DNA from: a virus
Lineage: Duplodnaviria > Heunggongvirae > Uroviricota > Caudoviricetes
Virus record (IMG/VR): IMGVR_UViG_3300031413_000570
Length of the DNA stretch: 56,089 bases
Strand: one strand, 5' to 3'
The position numbers and the translations under genes were made by a program. Below are positions 2,174-10,116 of this stretch, piece by piece (position 1 is the stretch's first letter; the number at the start of each line of letters is the position of its first letter). The notes beneath the pieces are model-generated. The model was given only the letters and a program-made list of their open reading frames with translations. It had not been told where the DNA came from and did no database searches.

Positions 2174-3904
2174 TTACAGAACCTCTACGATTGTAAGGTT
2201 GCTGATGCGGTCGGTGCGGTAAGGACGCTCTTTCTGGTCGCTGGTACGAATACCAACCAGAATTTCCTTACCAGCGTGACGGTGGGAAGCACGGATGTAG
2301 TCAGCTTCGAGGTTCACAGTACGAGCCTCACCACGAGCGGTCGTGTAGTCGAAATCGACTTCCACAACCATGTCCTGGTTGAGCAAGGTACGAAGCTCTT
2401 CGAGTACGTTGCTGTTGTCATCGACTTCAGTCTCGTCCTCAGTTTCAGCCTCAACCTCGTCCTCATCACCAGCACTGACGATGGTGATGTCAGTCATGCG
2501 GTCGATGCGGTAAGTGCGAGTCTCGCCGTCATCCTCACGGATACCAACAAGGAGGTCACCGTTATTACGGATTTCCTCAGCCTGGAAGTTGGTGAGTGTG
2601 CGAGGCTCGCCAGCAACAGTGGTGTAGTTGAAGTTCAACACAACAGTATTGCCAATGGCAATCTCAGCACGCAGAGCCTCTTCAACAGTAGAAGCCTGAA
2701 CAGCAACCTGAGTAGGAGCCTGGGGTTCAAGGAAGTGAGAAACAAGACGACCGTAGAAATCGTCCTCAGCCGCAGCAGCCTCATCCTGCTCGTCAGCTTC
2801 GTCCTGCTCGTCAGCCTCATCCCACTCATCTTCGCCACCGTAGACATCATCAAGAATGTCCTGGTCGATGACAAGGTTTGTCAGGTTAGCGTAAAGGTAG
2901 GAAGAAACCTCATCATTCTCATCAGCACCAATGAGAATCAGGTCAGTTCCGTTCATGCGAACTTCAGTCACAGCAAAGTCATCAACTGTAACATCGTCAC
3001 CGTTACCACGAGTGTAGGTGAATGAAACAAGAACCTCATCGACTGTGGTCAGAAGGCTTTCCAGAGTGGTGATGTTGTTGCGGTCTACCGTGTCCGCACC
3101 AGCGGAGTAGTGAGTGGTGGTAATCTGGTGTTCAGCCAGACCGACAACCTTGTAGCGGCTAACGCGAAGCTTCTGGAACGAAGCATGCTCAGGAACAGCT
3201 ACAACATCACGAGGGTTAATTTTCACTGTAAGGAGACGGCCGTTTGCATAGTTACTGGCGTAAGCATAGGAACCAGCGTGGAGTCCTGTGCTGCAACCAA
3301 CAGAATTGTCAGCATCCACCTTGGAGCGAGGAATCTCAACAACAGCACCCAGAGTGTTAGGCAGGTTGCTGTTCTCAAAGACCTGGTTGTTCACGATGCC
3401 ATAACCTGCCCAGCGTGAAGTACCGTCAGCGTTCACACCCTTGTAAGCGTAGAAGTCACCGTCAACGTCGATGGTGAGACCATGGCGGGTAATGAACTCG
3501 TACAGAGCGTCAACCGACTGTCCAGAAGGGTTGGTGTAGAGCTTCTCAAGGAAGGCAACAAGGCCGCGGTAGGAGTCAGGCGAGCCACCCTCATCAAGGA
3601 TGCGGAAGATGTGGTCCACGACGGAGTTACGAATCACGTCACCGTCGAAAAGAATCTCAGAACCGTTGAAAGTAATGCGGTCAGAGTAACGCTGAAGGCT
3701 GCGAGAGATGCTGGCACCAGGAGCAACAAGAGCTCGGAGGTTGGTCTCATCAATCTCATCAGCAGGAGTGGATGTGAGGGTGTTGATAATTGCTGCGTAA
3801 TTCGCATTGCTCGAATCAACAGTCTCAACTGAACCGTCACCGAAGATGAGTGTAGCGCCTGAACCCTGCGTTTCGGAATTGAAAATTGTATACATAACTG
3901 TCAT
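2174..3904 (-). CDS. rIIB: rIIB-like protein with three C-terminal WYL-like domains
   Basis: rIIB motifs DGDFYAYKGV, CSTGLHAGS, VKINPRDVVAVP, KLRVSRYKV; AAGGAG RBS; next to rIIA; repeats of the form FxY..G..R...R.YR.DR. Confidence 0.85.
   Translation of the reverse strand: MTVMYTIFNSETQGSGATLIFGDGSVETVDSSNANYAAIINTLTSTPADEIDETNLRALVAPGASISRSLQRYSDRITFNGSEILFDGDVIRNSVVDHIFRILDEGGSPDSYRGLVAFLEKLYTNPSGQSVDALYEFITRHGLTIDVDGDFYAYKGVNADGTSRWAGYGIVNNQVFENSNLPNTLGAVVEIPRSKVDADNSVGCSTGLHAGSYAYASNYANGRLLTVKINPRDVVAVPEHASFQKLRVSRYKVVGLAEHQITTTHYSAGADTVDRNNITTLESLLTTVDEVLVSFTYTRGNGDDVTVDDFAVTEVRMNGTDLILIGADENDEVSSYLYANLTNLVIDQDILDDVYGGEDEWDEADEQDEADEQDEAAAAEDDFYGRLVSHFLEPQAPTQVAVQASTVEEALRAEIAIGNTVVLNFNYTTVAGEPRTLTNFQAEEIRNNGDLLVGIREDDGETRTYRIDRMTDITIVSAGDEDEVEAETEDETEVDDNSNVLEELRTLLNQDMVVEVDFDYTTARGEARTVNLEADYIRASHRHAGKEILVGIRTSDQKERPYRTDRISNLTIVEVL
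2784..2819. repeat. 18-bp tandem duplication encoding the acidic linker (DEADEQ)x2
   Basis: TCCTGCTCGTCAGC(T/C)TC(G/A) occurs twice. Confidence 0.7.
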
Positions 3905-3996: not shown

Positions 3997-4341
3997 TTAG
4001 CGGTTTTTTGGGAAAAAGATTGGACTCAAATCAGTGTTCAACATGTTTACAATCTCTTCAGAAAGATGCTGGTCAAACGCCTTATTTTCATCCAAAGTCA
4101 CACCGCAAGAACAAGTGTTTGCATCTTTGACTGTGTGGGCTTTTACTACTTTCAGCACATGCTCAGTGTCATGACCTGCTTCGAGCCGGCGAACATACTC
4201 TTCAATGTGACGTACCGCTGTTGCAAGGGTGCCGTCTGTCGCCCACATAATAGGACTGGCTTTCCATACAAGCTTTTCATGGGCGGAACGAATTTCGGCG
4301 TAAAGCTCTTCTGTTGTTTTCTCAGGCATAATTTTCTCCAA
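3997..4341 (-). CDS. Hypothetical protein
   Basis: Non-overlapping ORF between rIIA and rIIB; start may be the ATG at 4329. Confidence 0.55.
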   Translation of the reverse strand: MEKIMPEKTTEELYAEIRSAHEKLVWKASPIMWATDGTLATAVRHIEEYVRRLEAGHDTEHVLKVVKAHTVKDANTCSCGVTLDENKAFDQHLSEEIVNMLNTDLSPIFFPKNR

Positions 4342-4353
4342 AAATAAAAGGGT

Positions 4354-4387
4354 ATGAGGCGGGACACATTTCTATGTCCCGCCTCAT
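4354..4387 (-). terminator. Terminator after rIIA
   Basis: 13-bp perfect stem ATGAGGCGGGACA/TGTCCCGCCTCAT. Confidence 0.7.
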
Positions 4388-4393
4388 CAATGT

Positions 4394-6607
4394 TTAGTTT
4401 GTTGCAGGGAACTTGAAGTTCAGGTACTCAACAATCAGTTCCACAGAAGCGTCACTGTTGCCACCAGCAAGAAGCTCAGGGTTCAGGCTTTCAAATTCAG
4501 TGTTGTACTCAGGGAAAACTGAAGCGTACATGTCACTGGTCACAATGCTGATGAATGTGGAAACCTTACGGTTCATCGAATAATCGAGGCCATCCACCTT
4601 AGCAGCCGCAGCCGTCCAGGCACGCATCTCTGTGTTCTGAATGTCATCAAGAACAGCTTCCATGTTCTGCGCCCAGGAAATATCATTACGGCTGTTCTCG
4701 AAGATGTTGATTTCAAGAGCAGTCAGAGGTGTAGCTGCAATGAAGTTTGCAACAGCAACAGGCAGAGCATCATCAAGGCTGACAGCTTCAGGCACAGCAG
4801 ACAGGAACGACTCAATTCGCACGTTGGTAGGAACCCGAATGAACGCAATGTCAGTCGAAGTAATGCCAGCATCAACATTGTAGTTGTTCTTAATGAACGA
4901 GATGGTGTTGTTGACCAGACGCAGTTCAGAGCTTGTAGCGCCAGCACCACGACCTGTGAGTTTGGCAATCTTGTGGGACAGTGAAGCAGTGTCAGCATCG
5001 TTCGTCTGAATGTAGACAACATGCTTCTTACCAGCAGCAACAGCAGCAGAGTAGCTGGCAGTCGAAGGACGACCGTTGCCCCATGAGTTGTTCACGCTGA
5101 GGAAGCTGACAGGAAGTGAACCGTAGTTCACTTCGCCACGAGTAGTTGTCCCGCTACGCAGGGCTCGCTTCTCAGTGTTGATTTCCTTACGGAGTTCAAC
5201 ACCCTTAGTCTCGAACTCCTCAGTAGTGTAGATGCCAACAGCAATCGCAGGAAGCCACTTGCCAAGGTCACCCTGCTTAGCAGTGGTGAACACAAGGTTG
5301 AAGCCATCTGAAATGCCGGGGTGCTTGACCTCGAACGCCTTGCGGAAACGGTTCAGGGACTGAGCCTCAGCACGGTCCTCCACGCCATACACAACCAGCG
5401 AACGACCGCTGAGTACACGGGAGTAAGGCTGAACAGTGTTCTTGGAACCTGAAGCACTGTAGAAGCTCTTGAAGTCCTCGAAAACAGGAACAACCTTCTG
5501 GGGAACAACCTCACCCTTGTACTTCCACTCCTGGTTGAAACCAGCAAGACGAAGCGACTCAGCAATGTCAAGAGCAGTGGTGCGGTTAGGAGCATCCTCG
5601 AAACGAGTCTGAATGTTCTTCACGACCTCCTTGTGGAGACGCTTCGTACCCTCAACAATGGCCTTCTTCGTCTTGTCGGAGAAGATGAGAGTGTCACGAG
5701 CAGGAGTCATGTCAACAGAACCGATGGGAAGGTTCACCACAGTGTAGTCGTCAAGGCTGCCGTAGGTGCTGCCGTAGTTCTGGTCGTCAAGCTCAGACTT
5801 GCTGAACGTGTAAGAAATGGGACCGACAAGAACAATCTTCTCGTTGTAGTTCTTGTGAAGCTTGACGCGACGGTTGTTCTTCTCCCAGTCAACAAGGTCA
5901 TTCAGCATCCAGCCAGCCTCGCCAAGAGCGGTGAAGCTCTCAGTGTTGTAGACGCTGTTGGTGTTCAGCTGACCGTTGACGCTGACACTTCCTGCAGGGA
6001 AGCCAAGAAGAAGGTTGGAGTTGTTGAAGATTCGGGAAAGACGCTCAGGGTCAGGAAGGGTGATGGAAACAACAGTCCCGTTGCCGTCCGTGGTGTTCTG
6101 AGGAGCAAGGAACTGACCCTTGCCGACGTTGTTCTCACCCTTGCGGAACAGAACGGTGTGCTTCACGCCATCCTTGACGGAGGTGACAACAAAGTTCGTG
6201 GCGACGCTGAAAGCAGACTTGGCTCCAAGACCGAAGCCACCAATCTGAGAGTTGGTCTTACGCTTCGTGGAAGCACCGTACTTGGGGAACACGTTCTTCA
6301 GGACATGCTTGTCCATACCAGTTCCGTGGTCACGAATGGTGAAAGTCGGGTTCAGACGGGTGGGGAGGGTGACCTCGACAGGGTTGGGGAAGACAAGACC
6401 GAAGCTGGTCTTTGCACCAAGAGCAGCAACCATGGCGTCCAGAGCGTTCGCAATGTACTCACGGGCGATTGCCTTGTACTCGTCAACGTACATGTTGGTG
6501 AGCATGTTCATGATGTGGGGAGTGGACTTTGCATCGAGAGTCATGTCGACCTCATCGTCAAACGTAGCGTTCGTGATGACTTCTGCGACCTGGGTGTCAA
6601 TCTTCAT
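4394..6607 (-). CDS. rIIA: rIIA-like protein (GHKL/HATPase_c N-terminus)
   Basis: REYIANALDA, IRDHGTGM, YGASTKR..N.QIGGFGLGAKS; AGGAG RBS; next to rIIB. Confidence 0.85.
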   Translation of the reverse strand: MKIDTQVAEVITNATFDDEVDMTLDAKSTPHIMNMLTNMYVDEYKAIAREYIANALDAMVAALGAKTSFGLVFPNPVEVTLPTRLNPTFTIRDHGTGMDKHVLKNVFPKYGASTKRKTNSQIGGFGLGAKSAFSVATNFVVTSVKDGVKHTVLFRKGENNVGKGQFLAPQNTTDGNGTVVSITLPDPERLSRIFNNSNLLLGFPAGSVSVNGQLNTNSVYNTESFTALGEAGWMLNDLVDWEKNNRRVKLHKNYNEKIVLVGPISYTFSKSELDDQNYGSTYGSLDDYTVVNLPIGSVDMTPARDTLIFSDKTKKAIVEGTKRLHKEVVKNIQTRFEDAPNRTTALDIAESLRLAGFNQEWKYKGEVVPQKVVPVFEDFKSFYSASGSKNTVQPYSRVLSGRSLVVYGVEDRAEAQSLNRFRKAFEVKHPGISDGFNLVFTTAKQGDLGKWLPAIAVGIYTTEEFETKGVELRKEINTEKRALRSGTTTRGEVNYGSLPVSFLSVNNSWGNGRPSTASYSAAVAAGKKHVVYIQTNDADTASLSHKIAKLTGRGAGATSSELRLVNNTISFIKNNYNVDAGITSTDIAFIRVPTNVRIESFLSAVPEAVSLDDALPVAVANFIAATPLTALEINIFENSRNDISWAQNMEAVLDDIQNTEMRAWTAAAAKVDGLDYSMNRKVSTFISIVTSDMYASVFPEYNTEFESLNPELLAGGNSDASVELIVEYLNFKFPATN

Positions 6608-7208: not shown

Positions 7209-7211
7209 AAA

Positions 7212-7256
7212 AAATAAGGAAAGCCCCTCAGAGCGTCTGAGGGGCTTTCCTTATTT
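7212..7256. terminator. Bidirectional terminator
   Basis: 21-bp perfect inverted repeat between convergent genes. Confidence 0.85.
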
Positions 7257-7261
7257 CTATG

Positions 7262-8626
7262 TCAAATTAGTTCGTAAACTGCTTCAACATGCTGAGCTTT
7301 GATTCTCTTCCCAGAGAAGAAACCTGCTTTACGCAAAGCTGCAGCCAGGGCAGGGTCACCAACAACAACCCCATGAACAGTAGCCGGCTCGACCTCAGGG
7401 GTTTCAGCTTCCACTGCAACACGAGGACCAATCCATCCTGTCTCCAGAACATTATCCACACCAAAAGCTTTCGCCTTGGCAAGAATCTCCTCACGGGCCA
7501 AAGACTCTTTCCCTGAAATCACATCCCAAGGACGAGGAAGGGTAGCAAACAGACGAGTGTCAATGTGAAGCTCCTGCCCTGAGTTGCGAGCCCACCACAC
7601 CACATCAGCAGCCATCAGACGAGGAGCTTTACCAGGAAGGTACACATCCAGAACTGAATCCAGGCCAGAGGCCACAGTTGCTGCAAGCCAAGCTGAACGC
7701 ATTGTGTTCAATGCACCAGCAAAGGCGTTCCAGCTGGAGCTATCCACGCCCTTAACCATGACCATTTCGTCACGCATACGCTCAGGAAGCGTCACGAACA
7801 ACGCATCCAAACGGTCAGCCGCGACAACCATGTGACGGTGGAAAACTCCACTCAACTGTCCAACAGTTTCCTTGTCAAGACGGTTGAACACATCAACTGT
7901 AGGTGAAACAAGAGCAATCTGCTCCCAAGCAGACGTGTCATCAAGCAAAGCCTTAAGACCTTCAACAATTACGTCTTTAGCCTTCGACTGACCACCAAGC
8001 ATGAACAGCGAACGGCGGTTTGCACGAGCAGCAAGGTAAGCCACAAAAGCCAACGACACATCATCCATCTTGGATGCATCAACAGCGTACGCCAGACGGC
8101 TCTTAGCCTGCATCTGGGCATGACGAATAGTGAGAGAATCCTGCACACGTGCAATCTTGTCCTCAAAGTTCTTCAGGAAACGCAAACGCTTCATGAAAGC
8201 CTTCTTGCTGTCCACAAAAGAAGCATCCCAGTCCAGTTCCAACCGCTGACGCAACGCATCAGAAGCAGACCATGAAGCAGGAACAGCCAGGTCATGCAGA
8301 GCTTTACGCAGGACATCCTGCAGCTGCTGAACGTACCCTTGAGCGTACACATCAGATGTAACAGTTGACACGTCAGCCTGAGGGAACAGAACCTGCAAAG
8401 CAGCAAGCTGAGTGTCAGCTGCGTCAACTTTGTCAAAGTCATCGTTCATCTGGTAGCTGTAGCGAACATAACGAGCATGCTGGCTACCCAGACGCTGAAG
8501 CTCAGCATGAAGGGCAGGGACATGGTTAGCAACACCCAAACCAAGGATAGCTGCAGCGACAGCTCCAGTCGATGAACGACGGACAAGGCTGTCCTGCAGC
8601 ATTTTGCGTGCGGAAATGTGATCCAT
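7262..8626 (-). CDS. Uncharacterised 454-aa protein behind a tRNA-like leader
   Basis: Start reassigned to the ATG at 8626 (GAGGAG RBS), because the TTG start at 8728 lies inside the structured leader. Motifs PGKAPRLMAADV and HGVVVGDPALAAALRKAGFFSGK look conserved. Confidence 0.8.
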   Translation of the reverse strand: MDHISARKMLQDSLVRRSSTGAVAAAILGLGVANHVPALHAELQRLGSQHARYVRYSYQMNDDFDKVDAADTQLAALQVLFPQADVSTVTSDVYAQGYVQQLQDVLRKALHDLAVPASWSASDALRQRLELDWDASFVDSKKAFMKRLRFLKNFEDKIARVQDSLTIRHAQMQAKSRLAYAVDASKMDDVSLAFVAYLAARANRRSLFMLGGQSKAKDVIVEGLKALLDDTSAWEQIALVSPTVDVFNRLDKETVGQLSGVFHRHMVVAADRLDALFVTLPERMRDEMVMVKGVDSSSWNAFAGALNTMRSAWLAATVASGLDSVLDVYLPGKAPRLMAADVVWWARNSGQELHIDTRLFATLPRPWDVISGKESLAREEILAKAKAFGVDNVLETGWIGPRVAVEAETPEVEPATVHGVVVGDPALAAALRKAGFFSGKRIKAQHVEAVYELI

Positions 8627-8678
8627 TTTTCTCTCCTCGAAAAGCCGTTCTCTCTGCGGCTTGTAAATAAAAGTCTTG

Positions 8679-8756
8679 TGCAACAGGGTGGATATGAACC
8701 ACCAACTACCCGGAAAGACAAGAGCCAAGCGTTCTATAACCTTGAACTACTGCTGC
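8679..8756 (-). ncRNA. tRNA-like cloverleaf with an 11-nt anticodon loop
   Basis: GCAGCAG TA GTTC AAGGTTATA GAAC G CTTGG CTCTTGTCTTT CCGGG TAGTT GGTGG TTCATAT CCACC CTGTTGC A; the trailer is CAA, not CCA. Confidence 0.65.
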
Positions 8757-8763
8757 AATAAAT

Positions 8764-8792
8764 ACTCTACCACAGGACATTTAGTAATGCAA
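8764..8792 (-). promoter_or_regulatory. SigA-like promoter starting transcription at the tRNA-like element
   Basis: TTGCAT-N17-TAGAGT; predicted TSS near 8757, next to G1 at 8756. Confidence 0.7.
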
Positions 8793-8826
8793 GAAAATGT
8801 GAAAAGTTTTTGGAGAAGACTTAAAT

Positions 8827-8865
8827 GAAGGAACCCGTACCTCACTTTCAGGTACGGGTTCCTTC
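8827..8865. terminator. Terminator after the solo WYL gene
   Basis: 16-bp stem GAAGGAACCCGTACCT/AGGTACGGGTTCCTTC. Confidence 0.8.
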
Positions 8866-8872
8866 GAAGAAG

Positions 8873-9073
8873 CTAAAGAACTTCCACTTCAGTGATTCGC
8901 TCTGCACGATAGGAGCGAGCAGTGTCCTCATCCAGGTAGCCAGTCACAATCTCGTGACCTTCCTGAGAGTTGGAAACTTCATCCACTGTAATCGAATCGA
9001 CAACAGTCTCGTCACCGTTCAGCTTCTTGTACTTGAACTTAATTTTCTGGTTCTTCTGAATATCTGTAGCCAT
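8873..9073 (-). CDS. Stand-alone WYL-like domain protein
   Basis: IKFKY..LNG...RSYRAERI pattern, as in the rIIB repeats; AAGGAG RBS. Confidence 0.7.
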   Translation of the reverse strand: MATDIQKNQKIKFKYKKLNGDETVVDSITVDEVSNSQEGHEIVTGYLDEDTARSYRAERITEVEVL

Positions 9074-9789: not shown

Positions 9790-10116
9790 TTATGCTTCCT
9801 GGTAGTGTTTCTTGATTGCGTTCTGAGAAGCAACTCCAATGATTGGAGTAGCGTTCGCCTGACCGTCTTTGAAGAAGCTCAAAGTAGGAATGGACTGGAC
9901 ACGGAAAGCTGCAGCCAACTCAGGGTTAGCATCAACGTCAACTTTCAGAAGAGTAACATTGTCATCTTCATTGTCGATTTTGTCCAAAATTGGTGAAACT
10001 GCACGACATGGACCACACCAGGTGGCCCAGAAGTCAACGATAACCTGCTTACCTTTGTTCTCTTCACTTTTCAACTGCTCAGCGAAATTTTCAGGGCTTG
10101 TAATGTTGACACTCAT
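9790..10116 (-). CDS. trxA: Thioredoxin
   Basis: VDFWATWCGPC active site; cis-Pro motif SIPT. Confidence 0.95.
   Translation of the reverse strand: MSVNITSPENFAEQLKSEENKGKQVIVDFWATWCGPCRAVSPILDKIDNEDDNVTLLKVDVDANPELAAAFRVQSIPTLSFFKDGQANATPIIGVASQNAIKKHYQEA

Follow-up and report, generated by a model that had tools for sequence, protein, structure and literature searches.

The viral DNA analyzed here, a stretch of 56,089 nt referred to as the window, carries a compact series of elements on its minus strand between positions 8800 and 8620. Read in this direction, these comprise a promoter-like pair of motifs, a tRNA-like cloverleaf, a spacer with a small hairpin, a GAGGAG sequence and the ATG (8626) of a 454-residue protein of unannotated family, here termed protein X (7262–8626, minus strand).

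The cloverleaf is a tRNA-derived RNA gene of 78 nt (8679–8756, minus strand). Read from 8756 to 8679, it matched the Rfam tRNA family RF00005 end to end with 44.2 bits (gathering score 29; E 3.4e-6 for the whole window) and was the sole Rfam family in the 56-kb window. Its 7-bp acceptor stem, formed by GCAGCAG (8756–8750) and CTGTTGC (8686–8680), contains one G–U pair and is followed by U8–A9 (8749–8748), a D arm (GTTC/GAAC) with a 9-nt loop that contains GG (G18–G19 present), an anticodon arm (8709–8729) with the stem CTTGG (8729–8725)/CCGGG (8713–8709), a 5-nt variable loop (TAGTT) and a T arm (GGTGG/CCACC) with the loop UUCAUAU, where position 58 is U; U8–A9, the D arm, the variable loop and the T arm were read from the sequence. 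The discriminator is A (8679), with CAA next. The anticodon-like loop, CUCUUGUCUUU (8714–8724), is expanded to 11 nt and begins with C32-U33-C34-U35-U36, a start of the tRNA-Lys(CUU) type. The features listed in an earlier note on this DNA, including the oversized loop, U58 and the CAA tail, were each found on the minus strand.

In structural terms, the RNA belongs to the tRNA family, with a score above the RF00005 gathering threshold and covariation in all four helices across 14 orthologs (below). It departs from a decoder with a 7-nt anticodon loop, U33 and purine 37 in having 11 nt at this place (10–16 nt in orthologs) and from the canonical T loop (T54-Psi55-C56-R57-A58) in its UUCAUAU with U58. 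ARAGORN called no tRNA over the window, being blind to the cloverleaf because of the 11-nt loop; the earlier note had expected a pseudogene or undetermined call. The same note had pointed to pairing between UCUUGU in the loop (8723–8718) and ACAAGA in the trailer (8679–8674). This complementarity is present in the window but is not conserved in orthologs.

A putative promoter (8764–8792, minus strand) precedes the RNA, with the −35 element TTGCAT (8792–8787), a 17-nt spacer, a TG (8772–8771) and the −10 element TAGAGT (8769–8764), and would place the transcription start 0–2 nt ahead of the first base of the tRNA-like RNA. A TTGCNN/TANNNT pair recurs at equal distance in the orthologous loci L002, L104, L105, L106, L004 and L084. 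A consensus promoter scan scored 8764–8792 below sigma-70 thresholds and called none at the site. Of the SigA-like promoter proposed earlier at the RNA start, the motif conserved at a fixed distance in orthologs thus stands as the basis for a candidate promoter, but the consensus scan does not back it. The 5′ boundary of the unit is a terminator hairpin of the upstream 66-aa gene (8827–8865, minus strand; −32.5 kcal/mol, z −6.6), and its 3′ boundary is a symmetric terminator hairpin just past the protein X stop codon (7210–7258, no strand assigned; −37.2 kcal/mol, z −8.5).

Between the RNA and the Shine-Dalgarno sequence GAGGAG (8633–8638, minus strand; read from the sequence, 6 nt before the ATG at 8626) lies a small hairpin, AAGCCG-CAGAGAGAA-CGGCUU (8642–8662, minus strand). 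The earlier note had read both elements correctly and had suggested that the terminator-like hairpin might gate the downstream gene. Since the fold is weak (−9.9 kcal/mol, z −1.9), was not called in a terminator scan, lacks a conserved U tract (none follows it in L002, L104 or L105) and is missing in six orthologs (L004, L109, L111, L110, L108 and L084), we conclude that it is not a terminator. A purine-rich AGAGAGA loop (8648–8656 in the window) is kept, with a co-varying stem, in L002, L104, L105, L106 and L182, a conservation that corresponds to the low-GC orthologs. The AGAGAGA loop is complementary to CUCU of the tRNA-like loop and also resembles a ribosome-binding site; in L106, the motif is present twice, flanking an inserted small reading frame. 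High-GC orthologs have their start codon 10–17 nt past the RNA 3′ end and without a Shine-Dalgarno sequence, suggesting that the mRNA 5′ end arises when the RNA is excised.

Conservation of the RNA upstream of protein X

We built a covariance model, R1, from three copies of the RNA and applied it to orthologous loci taken from assemblies and metagenomes. The same RNA was detected directly upstream of protein X in 14 of 14 distinct loci of the window's clade, where protein X orthologs share 46–61% identity. In the 14-locus alignment, 98% of cells were paired and 10 of 21 pairs showed changes on both sides, a level reached by 0 of 500 shuffles and nowhere near approached by six slid registers. 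The RNA structure is therefore real and under selection, being retained with compensatory changes in the leaders of all 14 homologs.

Constraint is distributed unevenly over the molecule. The acceptor, D and T stems co-vary freely, with 6 of the 7 pairs of helix 1 changing on both sides, and the anticodon stem is nearly invariant: in this helix 3, three pairs do not vary, one varies on one side and one changes on both. The stem reads CUUGG/CCGGG in the window and CCUGG/CCGGG in orthologs, with an invariant U29–G41 wobble. The loop start, CUCUU (C32 U33 C34 U35 U36), is likewise invariant within the clade, and the remainder of the loop differs in every lineage, giving ortholog loop lengths of 10–16 nt. 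T loops are degenerate, with U58 in the window and 8-nt versions in high-GC orthologs (for example, UAUCGAGU). The discriminator varies (A, G, C or U) and no CCA is encoded in orthologs; a CCA end can be added post-transcriptionally. Taken together, the uneven constraint, the 10–16-nt loops with no conserved sequence past CUCUU, the degenerate T loops and the variable ends do not form the profile of a decoding tRNA, in agreement with the earlier suggestion that this tRNA mimic is unlikely to decode.

Protein X represents an unannotated all-alpha family

Protein X matched no Pfam (E 0.01 or below), PHROG, NCBIfam or PADLOC family. A word-based search returned 59 relatives, and an exhaustive profile search identified 463 protein X clusters among 1.8 billion representatives, almost all of them stand-alone proteins of 430–500 aa. 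An AlphaFold2 model was all-alpha, with a pLDDT of 89 over the full length and 95.6 for residues 131–454. Foldseek searches of the PDB with either the full model or residues 131–454 gave no match at E 0.001 or below, and VIA-align yielded a nonsignificant best Z of 6.9 over 70–84 residues of a helical bundle (5.0 for the core). No fold match was detected among Swiss-Prot models, none in the ESM Atlas by features (best score 0.83) or by shape and none in a profile search of PDB sequences. This absence of fold matches does not prove that the fold of protein X is new.

The best match among AlphaFold DB clusters was an entry named ‘RNA ligase domain-containing protein’ (UniProt A0A0G3GV89; E 2.8e-21, TM 0.77), aligned over its residues 163–607. 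This entry name is the only hint of a ligase fusion, as a word-based search of longer proteins found no fused forms of protein X; the RNA-ligase lead as a whole consists of this one automatic database name and one neighborhood, that of Miltoncostaea described below. Numerous polar residues of protein X are invariant, suggesting that it is either an enzyme or a specific binder. The isoelectric point is near neutral in many members, atypical of a strong RNA binder. Two relatives, P0005 and P0008 (the latter at 6001–7749 of L182), carry a C-terminal extension of 110–150 aa with a marginal match to the Xre/MbcA/ParS antitoxin toxin-binding domain (scores of 24.8 and 24.0 bits; cut-off 24.5).

Distribution and gene neighborhoods

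Scans of reference genomes, viral contigs and metagenomes uncovered 180 protein X loci, mostly from Streptomyces and other Actinomycetota. Further carriers were found in Planctomycetota, Caulobacter, Armatimonadota and one Saccharibacteria genome. Protein X is encoded on Streptomyces linear plasmids, on a Hymenobacter plasmid and on an 815-kb replicon of Miltoncostaea oceani, and orthologs also occur on contigs of 791–883 kb. A collection of isolated phages contained no DNA or protein match to protein X of the window or to that of one viral contig.

In the window, the module is accompanied on the minus strand by genes for a thioredoxin (9790–10116), an rIIA-like protein (4394–6607; PHROG E 2e-64), an rIIB-like protein (2174–3904; PHROG E 7e-50) and an SNF2/ResIII helicase (116–2053). 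Thioredoxin and rIIA-like genes flank protein X in L001–L003 as well. The 66-aa gene upstream of the module (8873–9073, minus strand) gave a subthreshold match to a WYL domain (E 0.003), and the rIIB-like protein of the window showed a marginal C-terminal WYL match.

Elsewhere, the surroundings were diverse. Locus L181 lies on a replicon of 815,643 bp (NZ_CP064357.1) from M. oceani, an actinobacterium in pure culture, and encodes a protein X ortholog with a tRNA-like RNA upstream that has a 14-nt loop; RlaP, two PTH2 genes, an HNH protein, an RNA ligase and a class II aminoacyl-tRNA synthetase are located within 8 kb of this ortholog. In L182, the gene for the protein X relative has an RHS toxin and TnpB as neighbors to one side, with a type I restriction system at its opposite flank. 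L011 contains tandem protein X paralogs (2399–3721 and 4338–5675) with an odd tRNA in between. Clustering of 2,972 flanking reading frames revealed no third gene common across clades, so that the module comprises protein X and the tRNA alone.

Family-wide linkage and evolution of the anticodon loop

A tRNA on the same strand, located between −140 and +220 nt of protein X, was present in 159 of 177 loci; most of the remaining 18 lacked flanking sequence or had a hit from our covariance model only. At least one adjacent tRNA with a noncanonical loop occurred in 132 loci. The tRNA lies downstream of protein X in 138 of the 159. In the protein X tree, the window's clade was split from all others by a long branch, and the arrangement of the RNA follows this division: in the window's clade it is upstream with loops of 10–16 nt, whereas tRNAs in other clades are mostly downstream with loops of 7–8 nt. 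Considering only the nearest tRNA, the loop measured 8 nt in 86 loci and at least 10 nt in 13; in another 15, it had 7 nt and position 37 was a pyrimidine. For about a quarter of loci, the nearest tRNA appeared canonical, such as Lys-CUU or Gln-CUG, and the link of protein X could therefore be to ordinary C34 tRNAs.

We compared adjacent tRNAs with distal ones from the same loci. The series G30-G31-C32-U33-C34 was present in 136 of 176 adjacent versus 22 of 99 distal tRNAs (p 3.5e-19), and noncanonical loops in 106 of 176 versus 11 of 99 (p 1.8e-16). In 53 closely related Streptomyces loci, the tRNA body, anticodon stem and C32-U33-C34 are held fixed. The five loop positions past C34 had entropies of 0.86–1.42 bits, compared to 0.88 for third codon positions of protein X and a mean of 0.14 for the rest of the tRNA. 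With values at or above those of third codon positions, there is essentially no constraint on the 3′ side of the loop.

Several variants of the adjacent tRNAs were observed. Streptomyces-type tRNAs in L006–L083 (for example, 3524–3598 of L026) have A8 in place of the near-universal U8 and a D loop starting with U, and this A8-bearing body was also found in several metagenomic loci. The combination looks like a swapped 8–14 tertiary pair, which points to the importance of the L shape. On the plasmid of Hymenobacter sp. NBH84 (L186, 3894–4042), protein X is followed by two tRNA-like genes with loops of 6 nt (CUCUAC) and 8 nt (CUCUGGUA); two locus tags are absent from the protein table exactly at these genes. 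Four tRNAs have an amber-reading CUA anticodon and were labeled tRNA-Pyl by ARAGORN: those of L062 (3752–3826), L149 (1896–1971) and L172 (3491–3565) are within 25–76 nt of protein X, and that of L095 (5083–5156) is located about 1.6 kb downstream. In L062, the CUA loop looks as though the usual 8-nt Streptomyces loop had lost one base.

A candidate partner RNA for protein X

That protein X and a tRNA-like RNA form a conserved module is hardly open to doubt. Its position always beside protein X and its enlarged or scrambled anticodon loop indicate that the RNA probably serves protein X rather than the ribosome. Our leading interpretation, held tentatively and at somewhat below an even chance, is that the RNA is a non-decoding, tRNA-derived cis partner of protein X, acting as its ligand or substrate. 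Starting from the tRNA shape, the covariation, the division into invariant and variable parts and the near-universal linkage, we infer RNA processing, physical contact between protein X and the RNA and a cellular role along the following lines. Promoter, RNA, spacer, protein X gene and terminator would constitute one short transcription unit giving both products. The cloverleaf would probably be excised through 5′ cleavage by RNase P and 3′ cleavage by RNase Z or a comparable enzyme, yielding a stable tRNA-shaped RNA plus the protein X mRNA. Protein X may then bind or act on the RNA at the anticodon arm, with recognition predicted to involve the G30–G31 closing pairs, the U29–G41 wobble and C32-U33-C34, extended by U35-U36 in the window's clade. 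The 3′ side of the loop would be irrelevant to protein X and free to drift in sequence and length. Such a pair could function as a module in RNA repair or in conflicts between mobile elements and their hosts.

The earlier note had raised a tRNA decoy as one possible role, and this is the strongest competitor to the partner-RNA interpretation, although we consider it unlikely. Here, the RNA would imitate C34 tRNAs (Lys-CUU, Gln-CUG, Glu-CUC, Thr-CGU) in the region that a tRNase of the host or of a rival recognizes, and it would soak up the nuclease since it cannot be cut productively, with protein X being an accessory factor or unrelated. G30-G31-C32-U33-C34 indeed mimics the 5′ side of genuine C34 tRNA loops, and the scrambled 3′ side is where many tRNases cut. 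The surroundings also evoke conflict, with the rIIA/rIIB-like genes of the window, the RHS toxin and type I restriction system in L182, immunity-family proteins near protein X on a Streptomyces plasmid and the marginal antitoxin toxin-binding match in two close protein X relatives. However, a decoy leaves unexplained why the RNA is tied so constantly to protein X, on chromosomes and mobile elements alike; no nuclease partner was identified, and the loop varies at about the neutral rate, which is not clearly adaptive. A decoy role could possibly coexist with that of a protein X partner.

A more specific version of the partner-RNA interpretation, to which we assign a distinctly small probability, is that protein X is a new RNA enzyme or RNA-guided protein whose target or working partner is its own tRNA-shaped RNA, engaged at the anticodon loop. 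As an example, it could cut at C34 to release a functional tRNA half or, jointly with an RNA ligase, could shorten enlarged loops and reseal them. If so, Streptomyces plasmids, megaplasmids and giant phage-like elements would carry a tRNA-based system of bacteria and phages for which no counterpart has been described.

It is improbable that the cloverleaf is solely a processing signal, that is, that it recruits RNase P and RNase Z to set and stabilize the 5′ end of the protein X mRNA and is functionless after excision. The candidate promoter directly at the RNA 5′ end, the short distance to start codons without a Shine-Dalgarno sequence in high-GC orthologs and the 5′ hairpin that follows the RNA in low-GC orthologs would all suit such a signal. 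Acceptor and T arms are sufficient for RNase P and RNase Z, yet the anticodon stem and CUCUU are the best conserved parts, and a tRNA downstream of protein X, as in 138 of 159 loci, does not fit a device for the mRNA 5′ end.

Even less probable is a decoding function, either as a frameshift suppressor or four-base reader or as a pre-tRNA trimmed to tRNA-Lys(CUU). The form U33-NNNN-R37 is seen in the 8-nt loops of many relatives, such as CUCUUGGA, CUCUGGGA and CUCUCUAA, and loops in the window's clade consist of CUCUU, mostly a purine, an insert and U, as if an insertion had occurred at 37/38. Against this, the rate of change at bases past C34 is close to neutral, position 37 is a pyrimidine in many loops and, in the window's clade, loop size, T loops and the lack of a conserved discriminator or CCA are at odds with translation. 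We know of no bacterial enzyme that excises inserts of 3–9 nt, which counts against a trimmed pre-tRNA. Four-base decoding of the neighboring gene was rejected, as no site at a fixed place in or around it matches the reverse complement of the loop, and no co-varying site was detected in the 53-locus Streptomyces alignment up to 1.5 kb past the tRNA and about 1.75 kb before the gene end. Nor is a frameshift needed, since a single uninterrupted frame encodes protein X in 179 of 181 loci; L011, with its tandem second copy, and L179, with one frameshift, are the exceptions.

Least probable of all is a cis-acting sensor or attenuator, the other role raised in the earlier note, in which the tRNA mimic and the downstream hairpin would switch transcription or translation of protein X: the hairpin does sit between RNA and ribosome-binding site, and the CUCU stretch of the tRNA-like loop has the potential to pair with AGAG, either in the hairpin loop or in the Shine-Dalgarno region, but the hairpin is weak and missing in six orthologs as described above, Rfam gave no riboswitch or T-box family match and, in the larger part of the protein X family, the equivalent tRNA lies 3′ of the gene. 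We also set aside a DNA recombination site with the anticodon stem as inverted repeat and the loop as variable spacer, because protein X has no recombinase family or fold and spacers of 6–16 nt are unfit for a fixed crossover.

If the partner-RNA interpretation is correct, an unrecognized two-part system, in which a protein without a detectable known fold is paired with a private tRNA-shaped RNA freed from decoding, is present in several hundred species of bacteria as well as in their plasmids and in giant phage-like elements. It would also account for ‘undetermined’ tRNA genes with 8-nt loops that annotation leaves unnamed. Culturable carriers are available among NRRL, JCM and NBC Streptomyces strains, including Streptomyces flaveolus NRRL B-1589 and Streptomyces sp. 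NBC_01166, and as M. oceani and Hymenobacter sp. NBH84; plasmids of S. globisporus are carriers as well.

Comparison with known systems

A literature survey of enlarged anticodon loops, tRNA decoys, RNA repair and bacterial tRNA mimics, with Burroughs and Aravind 2016 outside its coverage, did not reveal the module. We compared it to systems that share some of its traits. Like the laboratory frameshift suppressors sufD and SufB2, the RNA combines a canonical tRNA body with an anticodon loop that contains additional bases. In contrast to these, the module has neither a matching four-base codon nor a required frameshift in the neighboring gene, and the loops of 10–16 nt in the window's clade are too large for decoding.

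Phage tRNAs reportedly counter tRNA-cleaving defenses, for example T5 tRNA-Lys against PARIS, and are said to do so also with altered anticodon loops. The module resembles these in featuring Lys/Gln-type tRNAs on mobile elements, where loop changes matter in nuclease conflicts. To our knowledge, anti-defense phage tRNAs keep 7-nt loops and the ability to decode and lack a protein partner of their own, whereas the module RNA is linked to protein X and has a noncanonical loop.

In mitochondrial tRNA punctuation and in the MALAT1 mascRNA, the transcript contains a cloverleaf to which RNase P and RNase Z are recruited, thereby setting the ends of neighboring RNAs. These cases need acceptor and T arms only, unlike the RNA studied here with its best-conserved anticodon arm, and they also differ from most protein X relatives, in which the tRNA comes after the gene.

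A further parallel is provided by Ro60 (Rsr) and its tRNA-like Y RNA (YrlA), which are often encoded in an rsr-yrlA-rtcBA RNA-repair operon and are known from >250 bacteria and phages in association with RNA ligase; in M. smegmatis, the protein gene has YrlA on its 5′ side, and RNase P cleaves this RNA (PMC4201824). In both systems, the gene of an alpha-helical protein stands beside a dedicated tRNA-mimic RNA on the same strand in many taxa (159 of 177 loci for protein X), a shared trait that denotes functional likeness and not membership. Protein X differs from Ro60 in having no TROVE or vWA domain (Pfam) and no match to any solved structure. The window RNA differs from YrlA in matching no Rfam Y RNA model, with tRNA as the sole Rfam match at the site, and in retaining a four-arm cloverleaf that includes the anticodon arm, its apparent conserved recognition element. 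By this analogy, Ro60 with Y RNA is the closest functional counterpart of the protein X module, neither part being homologous. The partner-RNA interpretation, if true, would make the module a second, independent case beside Ro60/Y RNA in which tRNA mimicry builds a ribonucleoprotein.
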